64,000 nt of DNA from an uncultured Pseudomonadales bacterium (lineage in GTDB: Bacteria > Patescibacteriota > Microgenomatia > UBA1400 > UBA1396). Numbering within the stretch: position 1 is the first letter of the stretch; each line of letters starts with the position of its first letter. The notes below the pieces were generated by a model, which was not told the DNA's origin, did no database searches, and saw only the letters and a program-made list of their open reading frames with translations. This document shows, in pieces, positions 4,949 to 55,896 of the stretch. The stretch spans positions 61,202 through 125,201 of the forward strand of contig CAYWTN010000001.1 in NCBI GenBank assembly GCA_964460975.1, given 5' to 3'. A program made the position numbers and the translations under genes.

Positions 4949-5032
4949 GGAATCGTTCCGCCGCATTGCTTCCTCAAGGGGAATCGACCCGGGTCGATTC
5001 CCCTTGAGGTGATGTACTGGCGGAACGATTCC
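4949..5032 (-). terminator. Compound perfect palindrome immediately after the prfB stop codon (putative terminator or protein-binding site)
   Basis: The outer 14-bp arms are GGAATCGTTCCGCC and GGCGGAACGATTCC. They flank an inner perfect 38-nt palindrome, CCTCAAGGGGAATCGACCCGGGTCGATTCCCCTTGAGG. The downstream U-tract is weak. Confidence 0.4.
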
Positions 5033-38139: not shown

Positions 38140-38340
38140 CTGCCATCTTGATTGCTCAAGAACGGTATCTCGCAAAATCGAGATCGGCTAGAAACCGTTA
38201 TCTTTCTCAACCTGTGTCACTCGCCAGAGAAACGGAGCAGGTTACCAAGCATGTGCTGGGAACAGCAGATGGAAAAAGGGTGGTACCGCGTCTTTCAAGC
38301 GCCCCTTTATCTACAAAAACGTAGATAAAGGGGCGCTTTT
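38140..38340 (+). promoter_or_regulatory. T-box riboswitch leader (Stem I-like helices, GNRA-capped stem III, antiterminator with UGGUACC bulge, terminator)
   Basis: T-box sequence AGGGTGGTACCGCG at 38277-38290. Antiterminator: A1 is AGGG/CCCT, the 7-nt bulge is TGGTACC, and A2 is GCG/CGC. The A1 3' strand overlaps the 5' strand of the terminator, so the two folds are mutually exclusive. CCGTTA (F-box-like) occurs at 38195-38200. Confidence 0.6.
38299..38340 (+). terminator. Rho-independent terminator (16-bp stem + T-tract), the terminator arm of the T-box
   Basis: GCGCCCCTTTATCTAC-AAAAAC-GTAGATAAAGGGGCGC-TTTT. Confidence 0.7.
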
Positions 38341-40143: not shown

Positions 40144-41238
40144 ATGAATCGAAAATTTCTCTCCTCCTTCTTTTTCTTCACAGTGGTTGTTGCAGCGGTT
40201 TTCATGGGCACCTTTCTGCTCCTTCAGCAAAAAAAGAATCCCACGACTCGCTCCGACTCTCCAGCAAAAAGATCTGGCAATCTGCTTTCTCAGCTGCTCC
40301 CCAACTCACCTGCGCCATCGCCATCACCTGATCCTTTTGCCGGGCTCACTCTTCCGTATCTCCAGCAGCGAATCTATCAAAGCAACCTTGGGGAGATGCA
40401 AAAGATCAGCGAAACCGCAACGCACATAAACTTCCTCACGAGCTACACTTCAGACGGCCTCACCATTCATGGGCTGCTCACTCAACCCAAGGGGGAAATG
40501 CCAGAGGGTGGCTGGCCGGCGGTGGTTTTTATTCACGGCTATATTCCTCCAACCCAGTACCGAACTCAAGAAAAGTATCAGGAGTTTGTGAACTATCTGG
40601 CCCGTAATGATCTGGTGGTTTTCAAAATTGATTTGCGAGGACACGGAAACTCTGAGGGCGAGCCTGGCGGCGCCTACTACTCGAGCGATTATGTCATCGA
40701 TGCTCTCAACGCCAGGGCCGCTTTGCAAAACGCAGAGTTTGTTCACCCAGACAAGATTGGCTTGTGGGGGCACAGTATGGCAGGCAATATTGTTCTGCGC
40801 GCTCTAGCGGCCCAACCAGAGATTCGTGCTGGCGTTATCTGGGCTGGCGCCGTTTATACCTACCAGGATATGCAAGATTTTGGCATTCAGGATAGCTCGT
40901 ATCAGGCACCTCGTTCTGGTGTGCCACAGCAGCAGCGACGGGCGAAACTTTTTGAAAGCCATGGTTCCTTCGAGAAGGATAATCCTTTCTGGCGGCAAGT
41001 GCCCGCAACCAACTACCTACAGGACGTTTCTGGTGCGGTACAGATCCATCATGCGGTAAACGATGATGTAGTGAGCATTGAGTACAGCCGCAACCTTGCT
41101 CCTCTCCTCGAAACCGCTGATGTAGCGTACGAACTCCATGAGTACCCCAGTGGGGGGCACAACCTCACTGGTGCCGCGTTTAGCCAAGCAATGCAGAGAA
41201 CCGTGGAGTTTCTGCAGGTACATTTAACAGGAAATTAA
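40144..41238 (+). CDS. Secreted alpha/beta hydrolase (S9 peptidase/dienelactone hydrolase-like)
   Basis: Signal/TM N-terminus. GLWGHSMAG nucleophile elbow. Confidence 0.7.
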   Translation: MNRKFLSSFFFFTVVVAAVFMGTFLLLQQKKNPTTRSDSPAKRSGNLLSQLLPNSPAPSPSPDPFAGLTLPYLQQRIYQSNLGEMQKISETATHINFLTSYTSDGLTIHGLLTQPKGEMPEGGWPAVVFIHGYIPPTQYRTQEKYQEFVNYLARNDLVVFKIDLRGHGNSEGEPGGAYYSSDYVIDALNARAALQNAEFVHPDKIGLWGHSMAGNIVLRALAAQPEIRAGVIWAGAVYTYQDMQDFGIQDSSYQAPRSGVPQQQRRAKLFESHGSFEKDNPFWRQVPATNYLQDVSGAVQIHHAVNDDVVSIEYSRNLAPLLETADVAYELHEYPSGGHNLTGAAFSQAMQRTVEFLQVHLTGN

Positions 41239-41250
41239 AATTCTTCTCTT

Positions 41251-41328
41251 CCGCCATGGGCATACTCGAGAAGAGTCCCTTTTTTGCGGCGATGAGTGAG
41301 TATGCCCATGGCGGAGAGGGCGAGATTC
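41251..41328. repeat. Repeat R1: 17-bp inverted repeat hairpin (CCGCCATGGGCATACTC ... GAGTATGCCCATGGCGG) fused to a 20-nt copy of the tRNA-Ser 3' end
   Basis: TGGCGGAGAGGGCGAGATTC at 41309-41328 duplicates 41446-41465. A second copy of the roughly 62-nt hairpin core occurs at 52998-53064, at about 92% identity. Confidence 0.6.
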
Positions 41329-41445
41329 ACCCCAGGAGTATTTCTCAGGTTCGCTCGGCTAACGCCTCGCAAACTTGATGAGCACGAACTCTGCTCGTCC
41401 TTGCCAACACCACTTCCGCCACGCCCATGCCTAACGGCATCAGCG

Positions 41446-41535
41446 TGGCGGAGAGGGCGAGATTCGAACTCGCGGTGCCATTGCTGACACGGAGGTTTAG
41501 TAAACCTCTGCACTCGGCCACTATGCGACCTCTCC
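41446..41535 (-). tRNA. tRNA-Ser, type II with long variable arm and encoded CCA; anticodon loop UUACUAA gives apparent anticodon ACU
   Basis: GGAGAGG-TC-GCA-TAGTGGCCGAG-TGC-A-GAGGT-TTACTAA-ACCTC-CGTGTCAGCAATGGCACC-GCGAG-TTCGAAT-CTCGC-CCTCTCC-G-CCA. Confidence 0.8.
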
Positions 41536-41568
41536 AACTGCCTCGATTGTACCAAACAAGGAAAGAAA

Positions 41569-43428
41569 TTATTCGTCGAGAGTAGAAGTGTCCCCCACAT
41601 CAAAACCGAGATACTGTGCCTTGAGGAGACGTCGTACGATTTTACCGCTCCGTGTTTTGGGCAGCGAAGCACGGGATTGAATCACCGAGGGCACCGCTAT
41701 GTAACCGATGGCGTCTTTGACCCAGCGCTTGAGCGACAGCTCAAGCGCTGGTGAAAATGTTTCGTTATAGGCAAGCACAACAAAAGCTACAATCGCCTCT
41801 CCGCGCAGTTCATCTGGAACAGCAATCACGGCTGCTTCTACTACGGCATCATGTGAGACCAGCGCACTTTCTACTTCGGCCGTACCAACCCGCATACCAG
41901 CTACGTTCACCACATCATCGGCTCGCCCCAAGAACGTCATCCTTCCTTGCTCATCCCATTGCGCCATATCACCAGTAGCAAAAAGTGTTCGTCCATTGAT
42001 AATTTGCCAATACTGTAAGAAACGCTCATGGTTATTCCAGCAATCAAGCAACGCTCCTGGCCAAGGTTGCCCCAGGAAAACCTGTCCAATTGTATTTGGC
42101 TCAGTGACGATTTGATTCTGCTCATCCAACAAAATAAGCTCTACACCATAGTATGGCCAGCCAGCGGTTCCCGCCTTTTGCGGCATACCAGGAAGCGTTA
42201 CCACCATGTGCCCGCCTGTTTCGGTTTGCCACCAAGTATCTACAATCGGAAGACGCCCCTTCCCCACAACACGGCTGTACCATTCCCAGGCGGCTGGGTT
42301 GATTGGTTCGCCCACGCTCCCCAGAATCTGTAGCGATGAGAGATCATACTTCTCAAGAGGCGCATCGCCCTCTCGCATGAGGAGACGAAGGGCCGTGGGA
42401 GAGGTGTAGAAACTCTGCACTTTGTAGCGCTCGATAAGCTCCCAGTATCTCCCAACATGCGGAAACACCGGCGAACCCTCATATATTATTGAGGTAATAC
42501 CATTGGAAAGCGCTCCATACACCACATAACTATGGCCAGTGATCCAGCCGATATCGGCGGTCGTCCAGTGAATACTTTCCTCGTGCAGAGCAAAAACATC
42601 TCTCATCGTGACATGCGCGTAGAGACTATACCCTCCATGTCCGTGCACAATCCCCTTGGGTGAGCCAGTTGTGCCCGAAGTGTAGAGAATAAAAAGAGGA
42701 TGAGAACTTTCCACCCAAACTGGCGAAAAATCGGCTGGTTCTTGCTCGAAAAGCTCCATGTCAATCTCATTCGGTTGCCAATGTGGACGATGATCGGTGG
42801 GGCGGCGGGCGACGACCACTTGAAGGGTAAAAGGCAGTCGCTCCGCCGCCCCCCGAACTACCGACAAAAGATCATGTTTTTTTCCACTTTTCTGTGTAGA
42901 AGTGGTCGTGAAAACCATTTTTGCTCCAGCGTCTTCGATTCGAGCCGCCAAAGCTTGAGCACTCAATCCAGCATAAACCAAAGAATGAATCGCCCCCATT
43001 CGAGCGCAAGCAAGCATAACTATAATCGCCTCGATACTTGTTGGCATGTAAAGCGCTACCCGATCACCTTGCTGCACTCCCCGTTTCTGCAAAAAATTTG
43101 CCATCTGTTGCACTTTGCTCAAAAGCTGGCGGAAAGAGATGCGGACCTCTTCATCGCGCTCATTAACAAAAATATAGGCAGTATGATCACCTCTCCCAGA
43201 CAAAACATGACGATCCAAACAGTTGTACGTGATATTAAGCTCGCCCTCAACAAACCACCGATACTCTGGAGCCTCCCAAACGAGTGTCTGAGTATACGGC
43301 TTATGCCAAAAAAGCTCTTTTTGTGCTTCGTTATCCCAAAAAATCCCCGACTCATGTATGGAAGACTGATAACGTTCATGATACTTCTGGGAAGAAATCA
43401 TAATCTCTATCATAACCCCTTGTGGCAA
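41569..43428 (-). CDS. acs: Acetyl-CoA synthetase (AMP-forming)
   Basis: TSGTTGSPKGIVHGHGGY, WWQTETGG and a C-terminal PKTRSGKIVRR-like motif. 619 aa. Confidence 0.9.
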   Translation of the reverse strand: MPQGVMIEIMISSQKYHERYQSSIHESGIFWDNEAQKELFWHKPYTQTLVWEAPEYRWFVEGELNITYNCLDRHVLSGRGDHTAYIFVNERDEEVRISFRQLLSKVQQMANFLQKRGVQQGDRVALYMPTSIEAIIVMLACARMGAIHSLVYAGLSAQALAARIEDAGAKMVFTTTSTQKSGKKHDLLSVVRGAAERLPFTLQVVVARRPTDHRPHWQPNEIDMELFEQEPADFSPVWVESSHPLFILYTSGTTGSPKGIVHGHGGYSLYAHVTMRDVFALHEESIHWTTADIGWITGHSYVVYGALSNGITSIIYEGSPVFPHVGRYWELIERYKVQSFYTSPTALRLLMREGDAPLEKYDLSSLQILGSVGEPINPAAWEWYSRVVGKGRLPIVDTWWQTETGGHMVVTLPGMPQKAGTAGWPYYGVELILLDEQNQIVTEPNTIGQVFLGQPWPGALLDCWNNHERFLQYWQIINGRTLFATGDMAQWDEQGRMTFLGRADDVVNVAGMRVGTAEVESALVSHDAVVEAAVIAVPDELRGEAIVAFVVLAYNETFSPALELSLKRWVKDAIGYIAVPSVIQSRASLPKTRSGKIVRRLLKAQYLGFDVGDTSTLDE

Positions 43429-43473
43429 AACTTGATAATTGTCCTTGCGCTCATTTTTTTCTAAGATAGAGAT

Positions 43474-46011
43474 GTGTCCAATCTCCCATCTTCATCCCAC
43501 ACCTACCAAACAATGAGCACCGCTTCACAGGAAGCTGTTTGGCAAAAGCTCCAATCGAGCGAAGAAGGACTTTCCCAAAGTGAAGCACTCAAAAGGCACT
43601 CTGTGCATGGCGCCAACACGCTCAAGCTTACACAAATGAGTGGGCTCAGCATTCTTGTCCGCCAGTTCAAGTCACCTTTTGTCTACATTCTCTTCATTGC
43701 TGGCGTGCTGGCAGTCGGGTTGGGCGAATTCATCGATGGTGGAATGATTTTTCTTTTCATCATCATCAATGCCGCCCTTGGCTTCTTCCAGGAGTTTCGC
43801 TCGGAACAAGCGGTGCAACTCCTCAACCGATTCACCACACCAAAAGCGAGCGTGCTCAGAGACGGCAAGACACAAGAAGTCCCTACTCCCGAACTCGTTC
43901 CTGGTGATGTAGTTCAACTTCTGCCTGGAGATATCATCCCCGCAGATCTACGCCTTTTTCACGCTCACCATTTAGCACTCGATGAATCTCTCCTCACTGG
44001 CGAAAGTGAGCCGAGCAGTAAAAAAACATTGCCAGTAAAGATGTCTTCGCCTGCTGTACATGAAGCAAGTAATATTGCCTTTTCTGGAACAACCGTTGTG
44101 AGTGGCCAGGGAAGTGGTGTGGTCATCGCAACCGGCTCGCAGGCATACTTGGGAAGTATTGCCAAACTCACCGTAGAAACGAATAAAGTGAGTAGCTTTG
44201 AAAAAGGCATGCAGAGCTTTAGCCATTTTATCCTCAAGCTTGTTTCGGTCACGCTTGTGCTTGTTTTTCTGGCTAACCTTCTCATAAAAGGTGGCGATGC
44301 CAGTTTGAGTGAGATGATTCTTTTTGTGATTGCACTCTCCGCTGCCGTCATTCCTGAGGCACTGCCACTTGTTATTACGTTTAGCCTTTCACGCGGCGCC
44401 ATGCGACTTTCCAAACATAAAGTGGTGGTCAAGCGTCTTTCAGCAATCGAAGACCTGGGAGGAATCCAGATCCTCTGTACCGATAAAACCGGGACCATCA
44501 CCGAAAATAAACTTACCGTGAATGAAGTTTATGGCAAAGAAAAGGAAGTCCTTTTCCAGGCTCATGCGGCTATTTTCCACAAATCTCTCCAACTTGATCC
44601 CCTAGATGCAGCCATAGAAAATGCCTACCACAAAACTGGTGCAGATACTCCTTTTAACGTTCTTTCCGAACTTCCATTTGACCCCGAAAGAAAGCGTAGC
44701 AGTGCCATTATTGAGCAAAACGGCAAATACCATCTTTTTGTTCGAGGTGCTGCCGACACTATCTTGCCGCACCTTACAACCGCACCAGAAAAATCCTTCA
44801 CTGAGTGGATCGAGAAACAAGAAATGGCTGGGAGACGAGTCATTCTGGTTGCCCACAAAAACACAACTGAGAGCAAAGAATACAGCAAAAAACTTGAGGA
44901 AAAGGATCTCATTCTTACTGGAGCCATTTCTCTCGCTGACCCTCTCAAAAAAAGCGCTGCGGCTGCCGTGCAAAAAGCAAAAAAACTGGGCATTGAGATT
45001 AAAATTATTACTGGTGATAGCGCCGTCGTTGCCAAACATATCGCCACAGAAGTTGGTCTTATTGCACCAGAGGAGGAAGTGCTCACTGGATCACAGTTTT
45101 TTGCGCTCACTGCAAAACAGCAGGAAGTTGCTGCTCACAAAGTACGAGTTTTTGCCCGCTTCTCTCCTTCGCAAAAATACCAACTCATTGAGATTCTCCA
45201 ACAGAAAAAAGAGGTTGGTTTTATAGGAGACGGAATCAATGATGCTCCCGCTCTCAAACTCGCAAATGTGGCCGTGGCCGTAGAAGGGGCAACCGATATT
45301 GCCCGAGAAGCGGCCGATGTGATCCTCCTCAATCCAAGCTTGAATGTCATTATCAACGGCATCGAGGAAGGCCGTGAGGTTTTTGCCAACACCATTAAGT
45401 ACATCAAAATGACTTTGGCCTCCAACTTTGGGAACTTCTACGCCATTGCCATTGTGACGCTTTTTATCCCCTTCTTACCGATGCTTCCTATCCAGATATT
45501 GCTTGTGAACTTGCTCTCAGACTTTCCCCTGATTGCCGTGGCGACCGACTCTGTTGATTCGAGCGAAATCCGCCAACCAGAAAGTTACAATATCAAAGAC
45601 TTTGCTATTGCCACGACTGTTTTCGGTATTTTGAGCAGCGCCTTTGACTTTCTCTTCTTCGCCCTTTTCTTTCGAATCTCTCCAGAAGTTCTTCAGACCA
45701 ACTGGTTTATTGGCAGCATTCTCACCGAATTAGCGCTTTTGTATTCACTGCGAACACATCTTCCCTTTTTCCGAGCCAGCGTGCCATCAAAAACTATTAT
45801 TATCCTTACCATCTTGGCCGCAGCCACGACGCTGGCCATTCCCTTCACTTCCTTTGGCCAGAATGTCTTCCGCTTTGTTGCGCCAAGCAGCCAGCACCTC
45901 TTTGTCATTTTTGCTGTAGTAGTGGTGTATTTCATACTCAACGAAGTGCTCAAACTGGTGTACTATCGCTTTCTTGGTAATAGAAATACAAGGGAAAATG
46001 CGATAGCATAG
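43474..46011 (+). CDS. Cation-transporting P-type ATPase (type II/III, Mg2+/Ca2+-like)
   Basis: DKTGTITENK phosphorylation motif, GDGINDAPALKLANVAVAV and about 10 TM helices. 845 aa. Confidence 0.9.
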   Translation: MSNLPSSSHTYQTMSTASQEAVWQKLQSSEEGLSQSEALKRHSVHGANTLKLTQMSGLSILVRQFKSPFVYILFIAGVLAVGLGEFIDGGMIFLFIIINAALGFFQEFRSEQAVQLLNRFTTPKASVLRDGKTQEVPTPELVPGDVVQLLPGDIIPADLRLFHAHHLALDESLLTGESEPSSKKTLPVKMSSPAVHEASNIAFSGTTVVSGQGSGVVIATGSQAYLGSIAKLTVETNKVSSFEKGMQSFSHFILKLVSVTLVLVFLANLLIKGGDASLSEMILFVIALSAAVIPEALPLVITFSLSRGAMRLSKHKVVVKRLSAIEDLGGIQILCTDKTGTITENKLTVNEVYGKEKEVLFQAHAAIFHKSLQLDPLDAAIENAYHKTGADTPFNVLSELPFDPERKRSSAIIEQNGKYHLFVRGAADTILPHLTTAPEKSFTEWIEKQEMAGRRVILVAHKNTTESKEYSKKLEEKDLILTGAISLADPLKKSAAAAVQKAKKLGIEIKIITGDSAVVAKHIATEVGLIAPEEEVLTGSQFFALTAKQQEVAAHKVRVFARFSPSQKYQLIEILQQKKEVGFIGDGINDAPALKLANVAVAVEGATDIAREAADVILLNPSLNVIINGIEEGREVFANTIKYIKMTLASNFGNFYAIAIVTLFIPFLPMLPIQILLVNLLSDFPLIAVATDSVDSSEIRQPESYNIKDFAIATTVFGILSSAFDFLFFALFFRISPEVLQTNWFIGSILTELALLYSLRTHLPFFRASVPSKTIIILTILAAATTLAIPFTSFGQNVFRFVAPSSQHLFVIFAVVVVYFILNEVLKLVYYRFLGNRNTRENAIA

Positions 46012-46018
46012 AAAATAT

Positions 46019-46720
46019 ATGCTCAAGAAACTCCAAAAGTTTTGTGAACAAAATACCTTCTTTTCTCGTTACCTTGACCGATTTTTGGGTCTTGGACTTT
46101 TCTTTCAGTCGCTTCTTATTTTTTACCTTTTCTTGCTCCATCTCAATTTTGGATTCTTTGGTTTATACCCACTCTGGCTCTCTCCGTTATTGCTCCTTGG
46201 TATTTTTGCACTTGGGACAACACTCTACACACTTCTCACAACCCGAGCCCTGAACAAAAAGACACTCAAAGGGAAAAAAGAAAAAAGACCAGCCACTAAC
46301 ATACTGCAAATGCTAGCAATTATCATGAGTACCATGAGTATTCTGGTTACCGCAGCCATTGCCTACTCACTCCTCAATGAACAACCGCCAAAATTCTTTC
46401 CCTTTGATGATCCGCAAGCACAATACACCGTTACCAAACGTGGAAAAAACTACTTCGTTCGCTATCAATCTGTTGGAGATATGAACACAAAGACCTTCTG
46501 TGGGCAACACCGTGGACGAGTTGTTTGCCGCAACAGAGTGGACGATGATATTGAAGTCATGGTTGGTAAGAGCCCTGTTGACTTGGCTCCTCTTGTTGGC
46601 AAATCCGTTCAGCTTGAGGGCATATTCCGCTACAGTGATAAGCAATGTATCCTCGATTCTTGCCATGATATTGGCCGCTGGGCAGTTCTCCATATTAGGA
46701 ATCTGCAGCTTTCTCAGTAA
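46019..46720 (+). CDS. Hypothetical membrane protein (3 N-terminal TM helices, Cys-containing C-terminal domain)
   Basis: Hydrophobic N-terminus. No motif recognised. Confidence 0.45.
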   Translation: MLKKLQKFCEQNTFFSRYLDRFLGLGLFFQSLLIFYLFLLHLNFGFFGLYPLWLSPLLLLGIFALGTTLYTLLTTRALNKKTLKGKKEKRPATNILQMLAIIMSTMSILVTAAIAYSLLNEQPPKFFPFDDPQAQYTVTKRGKNYFVRYQSVGDMNTKTFCGQHRGRVVCRNRVDDDIEVMVGKSPVDLAPLVGKSVQLEGIFRYSDKQCILDSCHDIGRWAVLHIRNLQLSQ

Positions 46721-46784
46721 ATGTCAGGAAAATGTCTTGTGATCGTCAAGCGGTCAGAGAGTGTTTGCGTAGACTCAGAGATCT

Positions 46785-47852
46785 ATGAAACACTTTCATT
46801 CCGTGGAGCGCGGTTATCGCTCACAACCAGAAAAGCGAGCAAAACTCGAGAGAAAAGTCACCGCAGAAACGCTGGCCTATACAGGGAGGAAGGCTACGGA
46901 ACATGCCGTCTTTGCCGCTTTACGAACCATTGAGGAGCGTTATAACGGACGCGGCGTACTCACCAAAGAAGAAATTGCCAAACTCAAAATTGATCTAGAT
47001 AGTGCTGCCGTCTCTGCTATGGAAGCAGTATTCTGGGAGCAGAATCTTGGTTGTATCGTTTCGGTAGGAAGTGAAGGAGCCAAGGAAGTCCTCCATGCAG
47101 GCAGCGCGGCCCCAAGTGTTCAGGGGTATTTTGGTGAAAATAAGCAAGCGTATATTGACTGCGTGAGCGACCCGGTAGAAGGCACATCTGCCGCTTCACA
47201 ACGCCAACCCGGCGCTGTTTCTGTCATCGCTTTTGGAGAGAAAGGTGGCCTTTTGGCCTCAAGAGAACAGGTCTACTATATGGAAAAACTCTTTGCCAGC
47301 GAGCAACTGCGAGGAGTGCTGTCACTTCATAACTCTCCTCTAGAAAACATTCAAGCTGCCCTTGCGCATCTTGGTATTCCGCCACAAGAACTTCATGTTG
47401 TTATGCTTGACCGACCGCGTAATAACGAACATAAATGGGCAGCGCAAAAAATGGGTGTTTCACTGCATTTGCTGGAAGGAGGAGATCTCATGCCTGGCCT
47501 GCTTGCCGTGAGCAATTTGTCGGAAAAACCGGTGATCCTCATGGGCAGCGGCGGATATGAGGAAGGCGTCATTGTTGCCGCCGCTGCCAAAGCTCTCGGT
47601 GGTTTTGCACAAGGGCGTGTACTCAATCAAGATCCCAATCTTCCGCAAAATGGTGTCTTAGAACTCCAGGATCTTGTGCCAGGTAAAAAGGAACATTGTG
47701 TTGTTACCGCTACGGCGATTACGCAGGATCCTTGGTTTGGTTTGCAAGCAGCAACCAGAAAAGTACGTGGAGATATGGAGCGATTTGCTGTTGAGTCCAT
47801 CACTTTTACTCATCATGGTGTGCAAGTGTATCATCCTGAGAAGACACGATAG
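46785..47852 (+). CDS. glpX: Fructose-1,6-bisphosphatase class II (GlpX-like)
   Basis: DPVEGT, YMEKL and ILMGSGGYEEGVIVAAAAKALGG match the GlpX family. Confidence 0.8.
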   Translation: MKHFHSVERGYRSQPEKRAKLERKVTAETLAYTGRKATEHAVFAALRTIEERYNGRGVLTKEEIAKLKIDLDSAAVSAMEAVFWEQNLGCIVSVGSEGAKEVLHAGSAAPSVQGYFGENKQAYIDCVSDPVEGTSAASQRQPGAVSVIAFGEKGGLLASREQVYYMEKLFASEQLRGVLSLHNSPLENIQAALAHLGIPPQELHVVMLDRPRNNEHKWAAQKMGVSLHLLEGGDLMPGLLAVSNLSEKPVILMGSGGYEEGVIVAAAAKALGGFAQGRVLNQDPNLPQNGVLELQDLVPGKKEHCVVTATAITQDPWFGLQAATRKVRGDMERFAVESITFTHHGVQVYHPEKTR

Positions 47853-49122
47853 AAAGCAACTTATATCCACGACTCACAACTGTTTGGAGTTGGTAGGGGC
47901 TGCGCTGGGCGAGAAGTTTTCTTCTCACCCGCGCAGCCAATCTATCCACAGCCCAATCGGAAACACCTAACTCACTCTCTTCTTGCCAAACGGCTTCGAT
48001 AATGGCATTGCGAGTAACAAGATTCCCTTTTTCTCCCAGCAAGCAATCAAAAAATCTTTGTTCTTTTTTGGTAAACTCGCTCAAATCCTTTTTATTTGTA
48101 CGCATGCTGTGGTGAATACTCCAAAAAAAGAGTGGTGAAAAAATATCGCCCTGGGCATTGAGTATGCCAGACTGCTGCAGATAATCGGGAGCCAGCTCGT
48201 TACTTTGAGAAAGGTTCTTAAGATACTTTTGTTCGTCGGCTGTGAGACTCGTAAAAATCTCCTCGCTCAATAACATGATATTTTCGTCAGTTCGTAAAGA
48301 TGTCTCCAGACGAGCTGCTTCTTCCCACAAATCGGGTGTATTTTTGAGATGAAGTGTCGCCAGCTGAAGATACTGCACATGTCCGCCACATAAGCGCTTG
48401 AGTTCCTGCATTACCTGAGGAGAACAACTCACTTCATGAGCCTTGTGCAGACGAGGCAAAAAAGATTCCTGCTCTTCTTGGTTGAGCGGAAGAATAAACT
48501 GTTGGGCAAAAAAACTCTGAGCAGAACTCTGTGGAAAAACATGCGGAACAAGCTCGTGAAGTGGTCGATAGCTTGTCACGACATACGATAGACTTGGCAA
48601 GCGATCCTTAAGCCCGTGGAGATTAAAAATGAACTCATTGGTGATGACCTGTTGCAATCGATCGAAACGTAAGAAAAAAAGTGTCACTGGACGGCCATTT
48701 TCACTCAGATGGTCGAGCAGCCGCTGAACAGCATGCGTAGCAAAGAAAACGTCACGCAACTGGATAGACTGGGTAAAGAGGGCTTCGCTTTGCTCTCGAA
48801 CACTTTGGTTTTCCAAATGTTCATGAACACTATCTAAAAGGGTTTTGAGGGTGAGCGTCCAAAGGGCGTAGAGATTGCGTTCCACAAGGTTGTTGAGATC
48901 GATTGGGATAAGGAGTGGTGGGCGCGGCGCAGTATGCGCCGCGCCCACCCTCAAAACACCTTCATTTTTCCTTCTTCTTAGGTACTGCCGTAAGAATGCA
49001 TTGATTCCCACGCGTTTCATTCCAATGAAAGCCACCGATTTTCTCTGTTCCAAAAAAGCGGTCAGTGACTCGTCGGCACGTAGCGAAAAATCAGAACTGC
49101 TAACAATGTCAAAAGGATGCAT
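47806..49122 (-). CDS. OmpR/PhoB-type winged-helix DNA-binding protein with a large non-receiver N-terminal domain (possible ATPase)
   Basis: C-terminal LVTRNAIIEAVWQEESELGVSDWAVDRLAARVRRKL...VVSRGYKL is a trans_reg_C-like wHTH. No receiver domain. N-terminal VAFIGMKRVGINAFLRQYL resembles a deviant P-loop. Confidence 0.6.
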   Translation of the reverse strand: MHPFDIVSSSDFSLRADESLTAFLEQRKSVAFIGMKRVGINAFLRQYLRRRKNEGVLRVGAAHTAPRPPLLIPIDLNNLVERNLYALWTLTLKTLLDSVHEHLENQSVREQSEALFTQSIQLRDVFFATHAVQRLLDHLSENGRPVTLFFLRFDRLQQVITNEFIFNLHGLKDRLPSLSYVVTSYRPLHELVPHVFPQSSAQSFFAQQFILPLNQEEQESFLPRLHKAHEVSCSPQVMQELKRLCGGHVQYLQLATLHLKNTPDLWEEAARLETSLRTDENIMLLSEEIFTSLTADEQKYLKNLSQSNELAPDYLQQSGILNAQGDIFSPLFFWSIHHSMRTNKKDLSEFTKKEQRFFDCLLGEKGNLVTRNAIIEAVWQEESELGVSDWAVDRLAARVRRKLLAQRSPYQLQTVVSRGYKLLSIVSSQDDTLAHHDE

Positions 49123-49312
49123 CCATATCTTTCTCTGTTACCATCTGGAAAACGCTATTGTAACAAATGATCCTGAGGCAAAAAATCCAGAGGAGATTCT
49201 TGTACATTCGGTAAGGATCTTTCACCACGAGGAATAATTGTCATACCTCTATTATAAACCTTGTATCTTCAAGCAAAATCGTGCATACTAAGAAAAATAG
49301 TAAAGGAGCTTT

Positions 49313-49657
49313 ATGCAGGTTCTACTTTCCCTCATTCTCAGCGGTATCGCGGTTCTCATCAGCGCGTACGTCATTCCAGGCGTAAGTGTCAACGGATTTT
49401 TTGACGCCGTAGTAGTGGCCGTCATTCTTTCTGTCGTGAACGCCGTCATCCGACCAGTGCTCTCACTGCTCACACTGCCAGTGAATATCCTCACGCTCGG
49501 TCTCTTCAGCTTTGTGCTCTCTGCACTCATGGTGATGGTTACCGGTGCTATCGTCCCTGGATTCACCGTAACGGGCTTTGTAGCCGCTCTCTTGTTTGCC
49601 ATCGTCCTCTCGTTGGTAAACGGTTTGCTCGGTGCGATTGCTCCTGAGAAGAAGTAA
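49313..49657 (+). CDS. Phage holin family 4 (PF04020/YvlD-like) small membrane protein
   Basis: 114 aa with 4 TM helices. The YVIPGVSVNGFFDAVVVAVILSVVNAVIRPVL pattern is typical of this family. Confidence 0.55.
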   Translation: MQVLLSLILSGIAVLISAYVIPGVSVNGFFDAVVVAVILSVVNAVIRPVLSLLTLPVNILTLGLFSFVLSALMVMVTGAIVPGFTVTGFVAALLFAIVLSLVNGLLGAIAPEKK

Positions 49658-49687
49658 TAATTCTAACAAGAAAACTCCTCCAGATAC

Positions 49688-51034
49688 TTAAAAAAGTTCT
49701 GGGGGAGTTTTTGTATCTTCCTCTTTTTTTCCAGCCGCATCAAACTTCTGCTGCATGGTGGGGTTTCCGCGGGTGAGTTTCTTAATGGTGAGGTCTTCTA
49801 TCTTATTATTTGCCAAGCGGAGATTGTCATCAGAGCGCAGCAGATTCTCTTTAGTTTTCTGAAGCTGCGCGATAGAGTTGTCGATGTGCTTAATCGCATC
49901 CGAGAAACGCTCCGAAGCAAGGCGGTAGTTTCTCCCAAAGGTGGTACGGAAATCTTCAAGCTGTTCTTCAAAATTGGAGACGTCAATGTTTTGTGCCTTT
50001 ACGAGAGCCAGCTCCGATTTGTACTGCAAGCTGTTGAGCGCCGCATTGCGCAGCAGCGTGATCATAGGAATAAAAAACTGGGGACGAATGACATACATTT
50101 TTGGATAACGATGGGACATATCAACAATGCCAGAATTGTAGAGCTCATTCTCCGACTCCAAAAGTGAGACGAGCACAGCATACTCGCAGCCTTTTTCCTG
50201 ACGATCTTTATCGAGCTCTTTGAGGAAATCCTCGTTGCGTTTTTTGGTAGCGGTTTCGTCGCCCTCATTTTTCATCTCGAACATGATGCTGATAATTTCG
50301 GTGCCATTTTCGTCCGACTCGCGGAAAATATAGTCGCCCTTACTCCCGGTTTTGGCGTCGTTATCCTTTTCAAAATAGGCACTGCGAAAAGCCGTTGGAC
50401 GGAGCTTGTTAAACTCGATTTCGCAGTGCTGTTCCAATGTTTCTCCAAGCATTTTGGTAGAAAGTTTGGACTTGAGGTCTTTGTAGTACTGAATCATCTC
50501 CTCTTTGGTTTTGAGCTCATGTTCATACTTTTCCTTGAGAGAAGTGACATGCAACTGGGACTCCGTGTCTTTGCTCGCGAGTTTATGGGCAAGCTCATCA
50601 CGCTCTTTTTCCACAACCTTGAGCGCTTCCGTTACGGCCAATTTCTTTTCGGTTGCCGCGGCATCCAGTTGTGATTGGAGCTTGAGAAGCTGGGTCTCTT
50701 TCTTAGCCAATTCTTCTTGAGAAAGGGTTTTGGTTTGGGCCGCCGCCAGTTTGGCGGCGGCCTCCTTTTCCTGTTCCAATAATCGGATTTTCTCTTGTAA
50801 AGCCTGTTCGCGAATTTTAGCCTCGAGTGTCTTTTCGCGCTCAAGAGCGGCCCGCACTTTGGCTACTTCTGCCTCAAAGGCATCCTTTTTAATAGACGCC
50901 ACCACACTCTTCACCGTGGACTGATCAATATCCTGTTCGTGCAAGGAAGTGAGATCAATAAGGTCCCCCCTCTGCCCGTCTTCCTGCAAAACCAGAGTGT
51001 GCTCATCTTGAATAGATACTTTGAGTGTTTTCAT
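49688..51034 (-). CDS. Coiled-coil protein with C-terminal PD-(D/E)xK-like domain (DUF2130-like)
   Basis: Long E/K-rich coiled coil. C-terminal GDYIFRES...[11 protein letters not shown] has a D...ExK arrangement. Confidence 0.5.
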
Positions 51035-51065
51035 GAGAATCGTTCCTTGGTTTTCATTATAGCTA

Positions 51066-51668
51066 ATGAATGGTAAAGTCAAAGATCATATGGATAAAGA
51101 ACAGACAGAATCACAAAGAATAAATCAAGGACTCAACCTGTATTCAGAACGCGAAAAGGTTCCCTACAATAATATTGACTCATTATCACCGAAAAGCCAA
51201 AGTATTTGTCGAGTTACCCTTGTTCCTTTTTTTACAGAAAATAAACAAACTTTTTCTGAAGTTGTAGACGCTCTGAAAAAACTCAAAAATGAGCAAGAAA
51301 TTGACTTTGATCCCATCCAAATCTTCCGTGAAAAACTTCTTCCAATGGGTGCACAACTTGAACTTGATTTATTTGACAACTACACAAACGATGAGAATCC
51401 CGCCAGCCTATTTTACGAAAACGGAAAAATCGTTTTATATGTAAATGTTTCACTTAATAGGCGATCTGAGTATAAAAATCTTCTTTCTGAATTATTCCAT
51501 GAATTTTCGGCACTTTTCCTTATGCAAAAAAAGGCTGAAGGACTCGGGAGAGAAATTCAGAGCGCTGCTGATTTAGCTCTTTACAAGCAAATGCTCAAGT
51601 TAGAAGAAGGTATCCATCTCACCCACATTGCCGATGCGGCTCTCATAAGCGCAACAAGAAATTCTTAA
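51066..51668 (+). CDS. Hypothetical protein (200 aa)
   Basis: Divergent from the DUF2130-like gene. No motif recognised. Confidence 0.4.
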
Positions 51669-51677
51669 AAAGAAAAT

Positions 51678-52556
51678 CTATACCACCAGCATCTCACAGC
51701 CTTCGCTGCAGGCGCCATGATGTTCTTCTTGGCAGGACTGGCAACAGATAAAGAGTGAGTTGCAGCTCACTACGGAGCAATCAATGTAGCGCGAAATTGG
51801 AGACGCGCAGTATTGGCACTCTGTCACCACGGTAGGGTTCTCAGTGTTCACAGGAACATGTAAACGTTTATCGAAGACAAACATTTCGCCCTCAAAAAAT
51901 TTGCCACCTGTTTTTTCGCCATACTCGTGAATACCACCATGCAACTGGCGCACATTGGCAAAACCCTGCTCACGCAAATACGCCGAGGCTTTCTCACAAC
52001 GCACGCCGCCGGTGCAGTACGTTACCACATTCTTGTCTTTATATTTCGTAATACTCTCCACGAAGGCTGGAAAATCACGGAAGTTGCGGATATCGGGCGT
52101 GAGCGCGTTCTTAAACTTCCCAATCTTGGCCTCGTAGTTATTGCGGGCATCGATAATGATAAAATCCTCTTCTTTTTCGTAGAGGTCACGCAGCTCCTGT
52201 GGCTCGATATAATCGGCTTTGCTGCTTATTGCCACATCATCACCAGACTTGGCGAGGCCCAAAGTTACTATTTCATCACGCACAACCACGCGAAGTTTGG
52301 GAAAAACCTGTTCATCTGCCCAGGAGACTTTCCATTCCAGATCGGCAAACTCCGAACGGCGCATGGTCTCCTCCATGTACGCGTCCATACTTTCCTCAGT
52401 TCCCGCTGCCGTACCGTTTATCCCCTCATGCGAAAGAAGAATACGGCCACGAATACCCAAGCGCTGACACATCTCTCGCTGCCAAACCTTGAGCTCCTCA
52501 ACATTGGCGAGGGGAACATATTTGTAATACAGCAATATCTTGACCGGTTGCGACAT
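51678..52556 (-). CDS. trhO: Rhodanese-domain tRNA U34 hydroxylase TrhO (YceA/UPF0176)
   Basis: ILLYYKYVPLANVEEL...ILLSHEGINGT and YCTGGVRCEKASAYL match E. coli YceA. C-terminal Cys cluster. Confidence 0.85.
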   Translation of the reverse strand: MSQPVKILLYYKYVPLANVEELKVWQREMCQRLGIRGRILLSHEGINGTAAGTEESMDAYMEETMRRSEFADLEWKVSWADEQVFPKLRVVVRDEIVTLGLAKSGDDVAISSKADYIEPQELRDLYEKEEDFIIIDARNNYEAKIGKFKNALTPDIRNFRDFPAFVESITKYKDKNVVTYCTGGVRCEKASAYLREQGFANVRQLHGGIHEYGEKTGGKFFEGEMFVFDKRLHVPVNTENPTVVTECQYCASPISRYIDCSVVSCNSLFICCQSCQEEHHGACSEGCEMLVV

Positions 52557-52655
52557 AGCAGGGGTATTTTAGCATTGAAGGCCAAAGTATCGATACAAAA
52601 CGAACTCAAAGGACAGAACAGGAATCAGGGTAACGAATTGAACGAAAACAAAGAC

Positions 52656-52898
52656 TTATGAACGTCTGTGATGAGCAATCCAGGCGACAATCTGCACATC
52701 TGTATACATCGCTGTCCCCTTCATACCAAGATCTTTAGCAAACTTCTGTAGTCCTGCAAAGGAATCACCTGCCTCTTTTCGTATAGCATCATAAGTCCCA
52801 GGACCAAACTCCTCATCAATTTGCTCTGGTTCTCGTGTGTGATATTCCATCAAATCAAACTTTCCTTCTGATGACCGGTCGAAAGATTCCATAGACAC
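52656..52898 (-). CDS. Small hypothetical acidic protein (80 aa)
   Basis: ORF only. Confidence 0.3.
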   Translation of the reverse strand: MSMESFDRSSEGKFDLMEYHTREPEQIDEEFGPGTYDAIRKEAGDSFAGLQKFAKDLGMKGTAMYTDVQIVAWIAHHRRS

Positions 52899-52997
52899 TC
52901 CTTTGCTTACGAATTATTAGTAATATCTAACAACAAAATTCCCCTGTCAAGTGTTGAGCTGGGTAGATAGCATAATTCAAAACTTTCCAGCTCTGTT

Positions 52998-53087
52998 GCC
53001 GCCTTGGGCATACTCACGAAGAGTCCCTTTTTTGCGGCGATGAGTAAGTGTGCCCATGGCGGAGCACCCGGGTCTGGAACCCGTGCG
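52998..53087. repeat. Repeat R2: second copy of the R1 hairpin core followed by a different tRNA-like 3' fragment ending in CCA
   Basis: GCCTTGGGCATACTCACGAAGAGTCCCTTTTTTGCGGCGATGAGTAAGTGTGCCCATGGCGGAG, then CACCCGGGTCTGGAACCCGTGCG. The reverse complement is a T-arm/acceptor-like ...GGTTCCAGACCCGGGTGCTCCGCCA. Confidence 0.55.
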
Positions 53088-53257
53088 TCGTTATAAGTGT
53101 TATACATTTTGGCAAAGTAGTAAATAGCCATTAAACCTCCTTTATCCATTTGGGTAAGTAGTGTAGCTGGATGGGTCATAAGGTAGTTTTTAGTACTTTT
53201 CCCGTTCTTTTTGGGCATTTGTTTCAAACAAACTAGTCATGTATTATTATTTCTAAT

Positions 53258-54385
53258 ATGCCTGATATTATTGAAAATGTGGCCCGTTTAACTAACTCTG
53301 AAGAAATCAATCACAAGAGATTTGATGAACATTTGGATATAGCGCAAGAAATAGAAGTTCCTGTAACTGTTGTTGAAAGTGCTGCTAGGTGGGTTTCAGG
53401 CAGAGGTAAGAGCGATATTCGTTACCTAGTGACACCTACTTCAGGCAGGAACACTTCGATGGCTTTGGCTGAAGGAATTAGCTTTAAACAAGAAAAATAT
53501 TTTTGGGTATACGCAAAAGGCAATGGCTCGCCGTTATCCGCTTTAGAATCTGATTCTCCTTACCGTACAGATGATAGATTTGAAGGTGAAGGAGGCTCTG
53601 TTTCAGGGCATCTTTCCGTAAGCGAGGCACGAAAAGACGCGGAAGCAACCCTAAAAGCAATAAATATGGGTGTGAGAACGAGGGTTCCCATTGCGGGTTT
53701 TTTGTTGGATGAAGTTATGGTAAATGGGCAAGTAATATCTAGCGAAGAATTTATTCATCAATTTAGGACTCCAAAGATAAAAGAGTCTCAAAACATATAT
53801 CTAAAGGATGGAGCCCATGCTGAACACCCATATCTTATTGAATATCTGACACGTAATCCTTTTAAGAACCTTGATATTTTATTTCTTTTACAAAAAGCAA
53901 TTACTCAAAGATTTATTAACCCAGAGTTAATGCTAGCCTTAATGGTTGGTGTTAAAACTTGGCAAAGTGATAACCTGAAACAGTATAGGGATTTGGGAAA
54001 CAAGTGGAAAGAACCACTAGAAAAAAGGAGACTTTCACCCCAGGAAACATATTTCATTGTTGTTGATGCAATTATTGCACAACAACAGGTTATGGCGGAG
54101 AATTTAGCTAGACTTCATGGAAATAACTTACATCATGGAAATCTGCATGGTCAAAATATCAGTTTTTTTTCTGGAGAATTAAGTGATTTTGTTACGATGA
54201 ATAAGGGCAATTTGCTTGGAGAAATGGATGATGATGTGGATATATATGCTGAGGACATTGAGAGATTTAAAGAAATTTTAATTCAGTTTAGTGGAACTTT
54301 TGGAATTAGTGATCATGGACCATTGTCGAATATTCTAAATAGAAGTAGTTTTAAAATAAAAAAAGAGAGTTTGAAAGTATACTGA
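53258..54385 (+). CDS. AT-rich hypothetical protein (375 aa) with possible protein-kinase-like catalytic loop
   Basis: The sampled region is about 35% GC, against about 50% estimated for the flanks. LHHGNLHGQNISF resembles the APH/kinase HGDLHxxNI loop with Asp replaced by Asn. LSDFV is DFG-like. Confidence 0.5.
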   Translation: MPDIIENVARLTNSEEINHKRFDEHLDIAQEIEVPVTVVESAARWVSGRGKSDIRYLVTPTSGRNTSMALAEGISFKQEKYFWVYAKGNGSPLSALESDSPYRTDDRFEGEGGSVSGHLSVSEARKDAEATLKAINMGVRTRVPIAGFLLDEVMVNGQVISSEEFIHQFRTPKIKESQNIYLKDGAHAEHPYLIEYLTRNPFKNLDILFLLQKAITQRFINPELMLALMVGVKTWQSDNLKQYRDLGNKWKEPLEKRRLSPQETYFIVVDAIIAQQQVMAENLARLHGNNLHHGNLHGQNISFFSGELSDFVTMNKGNLLGEMDDDVDIYAEDIERFKEILIQFSGTFGISDHGPLSNILNRSSFKIKKESLKVY

Positions 54386-54595
54386 GTGTGTCAAGCACCC
54401 CTTGGCCTATTTAGGCAAGTAGATTGGACTGTCAGAACCTTTTAACTGTTGCGGAAGCGATGGGCAGAATTATTTTAAGCTCTAAGTGAATATTCTGCAT
54501 CTTCGGGCTTTCAGCCCTCGAGATTCTTGCTGCGCAGGATATCTTCACACAAACCAGTTATAAAAAAGTTCCAGCGATGCTGGATTTTTTACAAG

Positions 54596-54682
54596 CGGAG
54601 AGGGCGAGATTCGAACTCGCGGTGAGCTTGCACCCACAGTAGTTTTCAAGACTACCGCACTAGACCACTATGCGACCTCTCC
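54596..54682 (-). tRNA. tRNA-Ser (TGA), type II, no encoded CCA
   Basis: GGAGAGG-TC-GCA-TAGTGGTCTAG-TGC-G-GTAGT-CTTGAAA-ACTAC-TGTGGGTGCAAGCTCACC-GCGAG-TTCGAAT-CTCGC-CCTCTCC-G. The acceptor and T-arm are identical to the tRNA-Ser at 41446. Confidence 0.85.
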
Positions 54683-54744: not shown

Positions 54745-55368
54745 ATGAAAAGACTCCTCTCGCTCCTTGCTCCAGCGAACTGTTATATTTGCCAGAGAAT
54801 AGGGAGTTGGCTCTGTTCGGGCTGCCTCGAAAACCTCACTTGGTATCAAGGAGCAGCGCTTTCGCAACTTGTTGTGCATCCGGGCATTGAACGTATTTTG
54901 AGTGTCGTGGAATACCGAGATAGTGTAGAAACCCTCATGACCTTGGTAAAAAAAGGCAACTATTTCTCTTTGGTTGAACTTTGGTCGCAGCTCACCTATA
55001 TTGCCTATCCTAGACTTCTTTCCAAAAATGATGTTCTTTTGCCGGTTCCCACCACTTGGCAAAGAGAGTGGGAACGTGGATTTTCTCCCACGCTCGTTTA
55101 TGCCAAGCACCTCGCCAAACATTTTGGCGCCAAGATTCATACCACCACGCTTATTCGCACCAAGGATGATGGACACCAAGCACAAAAATCACGATCACAA
55201 AGACAAGAGACAGAAAATATGTATGCGGTGTATAACTCGCCGCCAGAAGGAAGGCTTTGGATTATTGATGATGTGATTACCACTGGAGCAACGGTGAGTG
55301 CTTGTGCGCGCGCGCTGTCCGGCCTAGGCCGGACAGCGCGCGTCCTCACCTTCGCGGCAACCGTATAA
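54745..55368 (+). CDS. ComF family protein (phosphoribosyltransferase domain with N-terminal double Cys pairs)
   Basis: CYICQRIGSWLCSGC zinc-finger-like region and a PRTase motif, LWIIDDVITTGATV. Confidence 0.75.
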   Translation: MKRLLSLLAPANCYICQRIGSWLCSGCLENLTWYQGAALSQLVVHPGIERILSVVEYRDSVETLMTLVKKGNYFSLVELWSQLTYIAYPRLLSKNDVLLPVPTTWQREWERGFSPTLVYAKHLAKHFGAKIHTTTLIRTKDDGHQAQKSRSQRQETENMYAVYNSPPEGRLWIIDDVITTGATVSACARALSGLGRTARVLTFAATV

Positions 55369-55896
55369 AAACAGAAAAGCAAAAACATGCACCAGCCGCG
55401 CCGGTGAGGAAAAAGTGGAGATGCCGGGGAACGACCCCGGGTCCGAAAAAGAAACATCAACAAGGACTACGCGTGTAGAAGCATTTTGGCTCGAAGCAGA
55501 AAACGAGAAATGATCAAAACTGTTTTCTGCGCCAATGGAAGGTCTTAGCAGATTGGAGTCATTGCGCCCCAAACCTGAGCATATTTTCTGTGTTTACACC
55601 TTTGCACCCACGAAAATAAGATGAGATACAAAGGCGCCTTTTACGCAAAAACGTAAGAAGGAGCAGTGAAAGTGGAAGCCACTTCGCGAGCGAAGGACTT
55701 AGCAGCTGTCACAGCTTTGCCGAATGAATTGGCATGTATTGTTTTGACCCATAACGAAGGTCAATCGACGCGCCCATGTTCACGATCTCTCCCGTCAAAT
55801 CAGTACATCCCCAATTTGCTTAAGAAGCTCTACCCTCTATTATAGCAAAACAGCCCTTGCCAGTCACGTGAGTGGTTCGCTACACTAACCCCAAGC

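Follow-up and report, generated by a model that had tools for sequence, protein, structure and literature searches.

The question raised by this locus, a 64,000-nt stretch of DNA from an uncultured bacterium (assembly GCA_964460975.1, contig CAYWTN010000001.1, positions 61,202 to 125,201; the whole stretch is hereafter called the window), is what kind of sequence the hairpin-forming repeat is that occurs twice, as R1 and R2, in the vicinity of serine tRNA (tRNA-Ser) genes. The original prediction, made from the letters alone, read the two copies either as attachment (att) site scars bracketing an 11.7-kb island or as a small tRNA-derived repeat resembling a miniature inverted-repeat transposable element (MITE) or a short interspersed nuclear element (SINE). 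We put at about even the chance that R1 and R2 represent a low-copy, noncoding palindromic element of small size (about 61 to 66 nt), present here in two diverged copies, similar to MITEs or to repetitive extragenic palindromic (REP) sequences, and sited 3' of the sequence CTCCG without target duplication. Such a MITE/REP-like unit is an ordinary kind of object, of an unclassified family and of low copy number. If this reading is true, it adds one more small palindromic repeat to a poorly sampled bacterial lineage and is mainly useful as a warning for annotation, in that a hairpin that follows CTCCG and opens with CCA looks like the 3' end of a tRNA and may pass for an att scar, which is no ground for labeling the 11.7 kb an island.

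Anatomy of the repeat pair

R1 and R2 lie in direct orientation, 11,748 nt apart, and are identical at 61 of 66 nt (92%; E of 6e-21 by blastn-short), in line with the roughly 92% identity first claimed for the core. The central 28-mer of the pair occurs exactly twice in the 64-kb window and was not encountered in 100 shuffles, while an nhmmer profile of R1 and R2 recovered no diverged third copy from the window or from loci L001 to L008. The sequences flanking the two copies are unrelated to each other. Both copies fold far beyond shuffled sequences, as RNA (z of -6.3 for R1 and -3.4/-4.2 for R2) and as DNA (z of -6.8 and -3.9, respectively). The inverted repeat of R1, given previously as 17 bp, proved to be perfect and to reach 18 bp with the pair 41250/41315. 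The boundary of the repeat falls exactly on the foot of the palindrome at the distal side and 2 nt past the foot at the other side, and this coincidence of repeat ends and palindrome foot supports the view of R1 and R2 as an insertion element.

All five differences between R1 and R2 are located in the arms, where each disrupts one pair of a reconstructable perfect 19-bp repeat. Because none of them is compensatory, the differences point to the decay of a once-perfect DNA inverted repeat, rather than to a conserved RNA fold. Taking the better-paired state at each position, the inferred ancestor has a loop of 26 nt enclosed by an inverted repeat of 19 bp without mismatch (CCGCCATGGGCATACTCAC / GTGAGTATGCCCATGGCGG); the 64-nt consensus of the hairpin unit is CCGCCATGGGCATACTCACGAAGAGTCCCTTTTTTGCGGCGATGAGTGAGTATGCCCATGGCGG. 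In the only ATG-started frame that runs through the unit, all five changes are nonsynonymous and alter the peptide, and therefore the unit is not coding. No Rfam family matched the hairpin unit, and neither of its ends, which read CCGCCATGG... and ...CCATGGCGG, carries a GTAG or CGTC tag. An integron attC site was considered and rejected, since the ends are by inspection CCGCC... and ...GGCGG, not RYYYAAC ... GTTRRRY, and no integron integrase was found among the scanned ORFs of the window.

An empty site at R2

A key clue to the limits of the unit comes from L001, a 3-kb Logan metagenome contig (SRR23005873), which is 99.3% identical to window positions 53070 to 54594, with 11 differences, of which only 1 falls inside an open reading frame (ORF) of 1128 nt. 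Outside this shared 1.5-kb block L001 and the window are unrelated, except for a short stretch just past R2, and between the two L001 lacks exactly the 61 nt at window positions 52999 to 53059. The minus-strand sequence of the window is ...GGTTCCAGACCCGGGTGCTCCG(CCATGGGCAC...GCCCAAGGCGG)CAACAGAGCTGGAAAGTTTTGA..., where parentheses enclose the 61 nt absent from L001, and L001 reads ...GGTTCCAGACCCAGATGTCCCG CAACAATCGAAAAGTTCTGA... Past the gap the alignment restarts at once for about 22 nt, with 17 of 20 matches, a score that, under both nulls used, was attained by a single random window out of 1000 (p ~0.001, for an anchored alignment). Because homology to L001 restarts right after the 61-nt gap, R2 is, judged from this alignment, an insertion/deletion polymorphism within otherwise near-identical DNA.

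From the boundaries of this indel it follows that the hairpin unit includes the CCA of CTCCGCCA and that CTCCG, for which L001 has TCCCG, lies in the flank. The CCA that gives both copies the look of a tRNA 3' end is thus the element's first three bases, and the resemblance to tRNA stems largely from the element's own CCA. By the same reading, the start of R1 would come directly after the discriminator base (G73) that ends an orphan tRNA-Ser fragment of 17 nt. On the minus strand R1, R2 and a further palindrome, hairpin B, each directly follow CTCCG; in the case of R1 this CTCCG is the end, up to G73, of the orphan tRNA-Ser 3' fragment, and in the case of R2 it merely resembles that end and is located close to the terminus of an ORFan module of 1.5 kb. 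The element's final CGG pairs with the CCG of the CTCCG target, and the stem therefore extends into the flank. Target-site duplications, which the original prediction had suggested looking for, are absent from both R1 (flanks CTCTT/AGAGG) and R2 (flanks GTTG/AGCAC), with an ambiguity of at most 1 to 2 nt relative to the empty site in L001.

R1 and R2 have diverged by 7.6%, versus 0.7% for the module with and without R2, and our own Poisson estimate for recent copying from R1 to R2 is ~0.003. On these figures R1 is unlikely to be the recent donor of R2, and the excess divergence therefore leaves either another donor copy or an old R2 that was precisely lost from L001.

Relation of the repeat to tRNA-Ser

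An intact tRNA-Ser gene 117 nt from R1, together with a duplicate of its 3'-terminal 20 nt, had been noted from the letters and is borne out by ARAGORN and Infernal (Table 1). The terminal segment of this tRNA-Ser(ACT), TGGCGGAGAGGGCGAGATTC on the plus strand, is duplicated 117 nt away and overlaps the right arm of R1 by 8 nt. These 8 nt, CTCCGCCA, are all that the R1/R2 repeat has in common with tRNA-Ser, and if the CCA belongs to the hairpin element, the orphan tRNA-derived part shrinks to 17 nt, ending at G73. The Infernal tRNA model gave no match at E<=10 on the R1 core or in the region of R2 (52850 to 53300), and ARAGORN found five intact tRNAs only in the window. A different tRNA-like 3' half at the end of R2, as first claimed, is not borne out, since only CTCCGCCA is tRNA-like there; the R2 flank (GGGTCTGGAACC...) is module sequence that is 96 to 99% conserved in L001, where it can be read as the end of a 62-amino-acid ORF. 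A duplicate of a transfer-messenger RNA (tmRNA) 3' end was likewise discarded as an explanation of this flank, the likeness being 16 of 27 matches by eye only.

The suggestion of a small tRNA-derived repeat thus divides into two parts. The unit is MITE-like in outline, with ends at the palindrome foot and an indel at R2 relative to a 99.3%-identical sequence, and that part is supported; there is no support for a tRNA-derived or SINE-like element or a tRNA pseudogene, since the element itself includes the CCA and has no match to a tRNA model.

Hairpin B, a distinct palindrome, begins directly after G73 of the intact tRNA-Ser(ACT). It has the same outer ends as R1 and the same distal flank (CTTCCGCCA on the plus strand), with 14/16 identity at that arm. 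The spacer between the orphan fragment and hairpin B showed no significant similarity to the other sequences compared. A decayed tRNA-Ser in the 117-nt spacer was rejected, as the similarity to Ser(ACT) or Ser(TGA) was not significant; the spacer weakly resembles tRNA-Ser(CGA) in its variable arm and T arm (reached by 13/1000 shuffles, in 1 of 6 tests).

Table 1. Positions of the two repeat copies and of associated features in the window
Feature	Positions	Strand	Remarks
R1, copy 1 of the palindromic unit	41251..41316		Arms 41251-41267 and 41298-41314; 18 bp including 41250/41315; loop of 30 nt
R2, copy 2 of the palindromic unit	52999..53064		61 nt (52999-53059) not in L001; 53060-53064 is CGGAG on plus strand, CTCCG on minus strand, TCCCG in L001
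Stretch just past R2	52977..52998		Re-aligns with L001 and defines the empty site; CAACAGAGCTGGAAAGTTTTGA versus CAACAATCGAAAAGTTCTGA on minus strand
Orphan copy of terminal 20 nt of tRNA-Ser(ACT)	41309..41328	-	GAATCTCGCCCTCTCCGCCA on minus strand; last 8 nt are the outer end of the R1 arm
Spacer part between orphan fragment and hairpin B	41329..41415		Part of the 117-nt spacer 41329-41445
Hairpin B, distinct 36-nt palindrome	41416..41451		CCGCCACGCCCATGCC-TAAC-GGCATCAGCGTGGCGG; final 6 nt coincide with the terminal CCGCCA of the intact tRNA-Ser
tRNA-Ser, unusual anticodon ACT	41446..41535	-	CCA encoded; ARAGORN and Infernal
Low-GC ORFan module	53065..54594		G+C ~0.40; spans from R2 to the base after G73 of tRNA-Ser(TGA); recurs at L001 1066-2593
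tRNA-Ser(TGA)	54595..54682	-	CCA not encoded; 3'-terminal 30 nt (GCGGAG...CGCGGTG on plus strand) identical to tRNA-Ser(ACT)

The segment between the two copies

Pfam agrees with the gene content first listed for the bracketed segment (acs, a P-type ATPase, glpX, a winged helix-turn-helix regulator, a holin-family protein, DUF2130 and trhO). These genes are of the housekeeping type, and the G+C content of the segment (~0.47) is close to that of the window (~0.48). A Pfam scan of ORFs of 110 amino acids or more across the 64-kb window detected no integrase, recombinase or transposase family (including HUH, DDE, Y1, RAYT and TnpA). The 3' end of tRNA-Ser(ACT) faces R1, away from the 11.7-kb segment, and therefore anything integrated there would fall in the 117 nt towards R1, not towards R2. 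R2 itself lies 1.5 kb 3' of the second gene, tRNA-Ser(TGA), just as R1 lies 117 nt 3' of tRNA-Ser(ACT), so that each hairpin is 3' of its own tRNA-Ser. The window thus contains two parallel layouts of tRNA-Ser, insert and CTCCGCCA-hairpin, with inserts of 117 nt and 1.5 kb. The true 20-nt duplication of tRNA-Ser (41309 and 41446) bounds the 117 nt only.

The proposal that R1 and R2 are attL and attR scars at tRNA-Ser, with the 11.7 kb from acs to trhO as the island, is barely credible in the light of this geometry, which puts the 11.7 kb at the wrong side of the tRNA and on account of which the island reading fails. It can draw on the adjoining of direct repeats to tRNA-Ser and on the lack of close relatives of acs, whose next best match has 59% identity (58 to 59%; 68 to 69% for trhO), with different neighboring genes around the acs and trhO relatives and no conservation of synteny. 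Against this stand (i) the repeat/tRNA overlap of just 8 nt, (ii) an R2 flank that is not tRNA-like by Infernal, (iii) the lack of an integrase among the scanned ORFs, and (iv) the unremarkable base composition and housekeeping-type genes of a segment that is best read as ordinary chromosome, not as a genomic island.

Integrase-borne islands have att sites in tRNA and tmRNA genes, as reportedly described by Williams in Nucleic Acids Res in 2002. The locus resembles such islands in the 20-nt direct duplication of a tRNA 3' end located 3' of the intact gene and in the foreign-looking, low-GC module that begins at a tRNA-Ser 3' end, and differs from them in that the duplication bounds only 117 nt, no integrase was found among the scanned ORFs, the R1/R2 repeat is not a tRNA segment and the 11.7 kb is located at the wrong side of the tRNA.

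Comparison with known systems

Small palindromic repeats akin to MITEs are known from several bacteria, among them Correia/NEMIS, RUP, ERIC and the RPE of Rickettsia. R1 and R2 are like MITEs in being short and noncoding, in residing at gene ends, in having terminal inverted repeats (without mismatch over 17 to 18 bp in R1, and of 19 bp in the ancestor as reconstructed) that together form a single hairpin, and in the occurrence of a filled and an empty site in otherwise homologous, near-identical DNA (R2 versus L001). On the other hand, they measure only 61 to 66 nt, lack a target-site duplication and are known from two copies, and no parent insertion sequence (IS) with matching ends was seen.

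REP sequences are defined by a palindrome of 20 to 40 bp that bears an unpaired tag, GTAG or CGTC, at one of its ends (PMC3733652), by high copy number and by an associated REP-associated tyrosine transposase (RAYT) gene (PMC3116915), and REPINs are hairpins of two inverted arms mobilized by RAYTs (PMC3116915). Likeness to REPs and REPINs can be seen in the two inverted arms and spacer that form a hairpin of about 60 to 100 nt, in the extragenic position between convergent or codirectional genes and in the proposed single-strand HUH mobilization (PMC3116915, PMC3733652); in contrast to them, R1 and R2 have no GTAG/CGTC tag, arms that are not REP-type palindromes, and two copies in 64 kb, with no RAYT gene found among the scanned ORFs. 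For IS608, the insertion point is exactly 3' of TTAC, and this tetranucleotide is retained in the left flank (PMC5934647). With IS200/IS605 elements and their nonautonomous derivatives, palindrome-associated transposable elements (PATEs), the unit shares insertion right 3' of a short, specific sequence retained in the flank, the lack of a duplication and hairpin-forming ends (PMC5934647, PMC7290912), whereas the latter possess guide sequences and a subterminal hairpin of a different kind at each end, and R1 and R2 have one symmetric hairpin and no TnpA in the window. Membership of the unit in the IS200/IS605 or the REP/REPIN family fails on defining features, namely, the missing GTAG/CGTC tag, the single symmetric hairpin in place of two distinct ends and the lack of a TnpA or RAYT in the window.

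The closest mechanistic analogue of the unit would be single-strand HUH transposition. How the unit moves we infer by analogy, from an anatomy and an indel that are themselves observed: a single-stranded hairpin would be copied and then inserted 3' of a short specific target, as in transposition of the IS200/IS605 or RAYT type, by an enzyme that might be supplied in trans from beyond the window. Its present-day effect may be that of a terminator-like or RNA-end structure.

An ORFan module behind tRNA-Ser

The module next to R2 comprises a small minus-strand ORF (start at 53218), an ORF of 375 amino acids on the plus strand (53258 to 54385) and a bidirectional terminator (54570 to 54584). It starts right after G73 of tRNA-Ser(TGA) in the window and right after G73 of tRNA-Ser(CGA) in L001, with unrelated outer flanks, and in the window CTCCGC is found at both of its ends. 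The 375-amino-acid protein has no match in Pfam, PHROG or PDB, and no homologue was found among 5.8e9 proteins or in IMG/VR. It carries a weak Bud32-like kinase motif (HGNLHGQN), is at best kinase-like, and gave an unusable single-sequence AlphaFold2 model (predicted local distance difference test score of 32.7). The protein was considered as a recombinase and rejected, as it matches no such family and shows only the weak kinase motif; nor is any other recombinase or integrase recognizable in the module. An orphan-gene cassette that in two separate contexts is placed immediately after G73, each time of a different tRNA-Ser gene, is the more interesting by-product of this analysis, and if the module proves to be mobile, no recognizable recombinase accounts for its mobility.

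Alternative explanations

Several observations weigh against an insertion element with a CTCCG target. Of the three occurrences of CTCCG, two represent one and the same tRNA-Ser sequence, which leaves two independent sites as the basis of target specificity. Precise loss of the palindrome from L001 is equally compatible with the data as its insertion, and the case for the empty site is built on one 3-kb Logan contig and about 22 nt of diverged flank. The single symmetric hairpin is not the pair of distinct subterminal hairpins of IS200/IS605, the REP tag is missing, and no HUH, DDE or other transposase or integrase was detected among the scanned ORFs. The known copies are two only, both in the window, and scans of GTDB representatives, IMG/VR and JGI metagenomes yielded no true copy. 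A core 23-mer had no match in GTDB species-representative genomes and IMG/VR, a concatenated six-frame peptide query of the unit had none at E<=10 among 5.8e9 proteins, and a core 21-mer had one match in JGI metagenomes (locus L002), which is not a true copy and lies within a sigma-54 activator gene. There, positions 1198 to 1222 match the hairpin loop exactly over 25 nt (GAAGAGTCCCTTTTTTGCGGCGATG, window 41270 to 41294), coding for IAAKKGLF, with additional similarity to the left arm (p of 0.002 to 0.009). Frame-repaired peptides of L002 had no Pfam match, and a plasmid BLAST returned unrelated matches only, including a ParA-type ATPase that shares the peptide LIAAKK; the match is probably due to chance, though unexplained.

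The main rival account of the same data, possible though rather unlikely, is that the hairpin is native, namely, the original 3' trailer or terminator of the tRNA-Ser genes, with a stem starting at the CCGCCA end of the tRNA, which was pushed off by later insertions at the tRNA 3' end; there would then be two small att-type scars, one at Ser(ACT), made up of the 117 nt and the 20-nt duplication, and one at Ser(TGA), made up of the 1.5-kb module, not one 11.7-kb island. This account makes good use of the position of each hairpin 3' of a tRNA-Ser on the same strand, of hairpin B, which follows the intact tRNA-Ser(ACT) directly with the same design, distal flank and arm identity as given above, and of the true direct duplication of the tRNA 3' end; the start of the module right after G73 of two different tRNA-Ser genes and the CTCCGC at both module ends also speak for it, and the identical 30-nt 3' part of both tRNA-Ser genes could drive gene conversion into the trailer. 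It sits less well with L001, which is homologous to both sides of R2 yet lacks the hairpin, something unexpected if the sequence past R2 were window-specific chromosome, and with an identity of 92% between the trailers as against 77% between the tRNAs. Nor does it foresee that the repeat ends exactly at the palindrome foot, that tRNA-Ser(TGA) ends without CCA, or that neither the module, with its at best kinase-like protein, nor the scanned ORFs of the window include an integrase. Unlikely, too, is a one-off event in which one terminator-like hairpin gave rise to one extra copy, through templated repair or through gene conversion, via CTCCG/CGG microhomology, with no dedicated mobility or wider family. 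The restriction to two copies in everything scanned, a junction microhomology of 5 to 8 nt and the abundance of long perfect hairpins at gene ends, which makes this general type native, all fit such an event, but R1 and R2 differ at 5 of 66 positions while the module of R2 differs by 0.7% from its R2-less copy, so that R1 is unlikely to be a recent donor, and the exact match of the unit to the palindrome is left unexplained.

A broader interpretation, which we regard as a long shot, takes the repeat and the module together: in a reduced-genome lineage, probably Patescibacteria-like to judge by gene content alone, tRNA-Ser 3' ends would be a hot spot for two integrase-less insertions right after G73 (CTCCG), one being the hairpin, which brings along a CCA and base-pairs with the end of the tRNA, and the other the 1.5-kb ORFan cassette, found 99.3% identical behind two tRNA-Ser genes, and both would belong to a novel system of site-specific mobility, with the acceptor end of tRNA-Ser as the sequence recognized.

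Terminator-like features and neighboring RNA genes

R1 begins 13 nt past the stop codon of a plus-strand hydrolase gene (end at 41238) and is at the same time 3' of tRNA-Ser. Nested in it on the plus strand (41259 to 41286), a small bulged hairpin can be discerned by eye, GGG[CAT]ACTC-GAGAA-GAGTCCC followed by TTTTTT, and the same motif is present in R2. From its sequence, the nested motif is plausible as a terminator-like structure for the hydrolase gene. A terminator scanner reported no canonical terminator in 40800 to 41800, and the main stem has no T tail.

The tmRNA gene of the window (55413 to 55812, minus strand; 88 bits with Rfam) was missed by ARAGORN and is situated just past a comF-like gene and tRNA-Ser(TGA). 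The tRNA-Ser at 41446 has the anticodon ACT in the loop TTACTAA, in place of the usual GCT; within the split AGN box, it is unusual for a serine tRNA to have A34. The window contains no other tRNA that would read AGY, and the serine codons AGC and AGT occur 161 and 204 times, respectively, in 38 of its genes.

Many long (15 to 19 bp), perfect or near-perfect, G+C-rich palindromes with loops of 0 to 6 nt are scattered over the window. They include those at 862 to 897, 1297 to 1336, 4972 to 5009, 10685 to 10716, 38297 to 38338, 48917 to 48949 and 55309 to 55342. Some are intergenic (4972 to 5009 and 38297 to 38338) and others are within long ORFs, for example, that at 55309 in the end of the comF-like ORF. 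None of them is repeated, and they may represent the terminator style of this organism.

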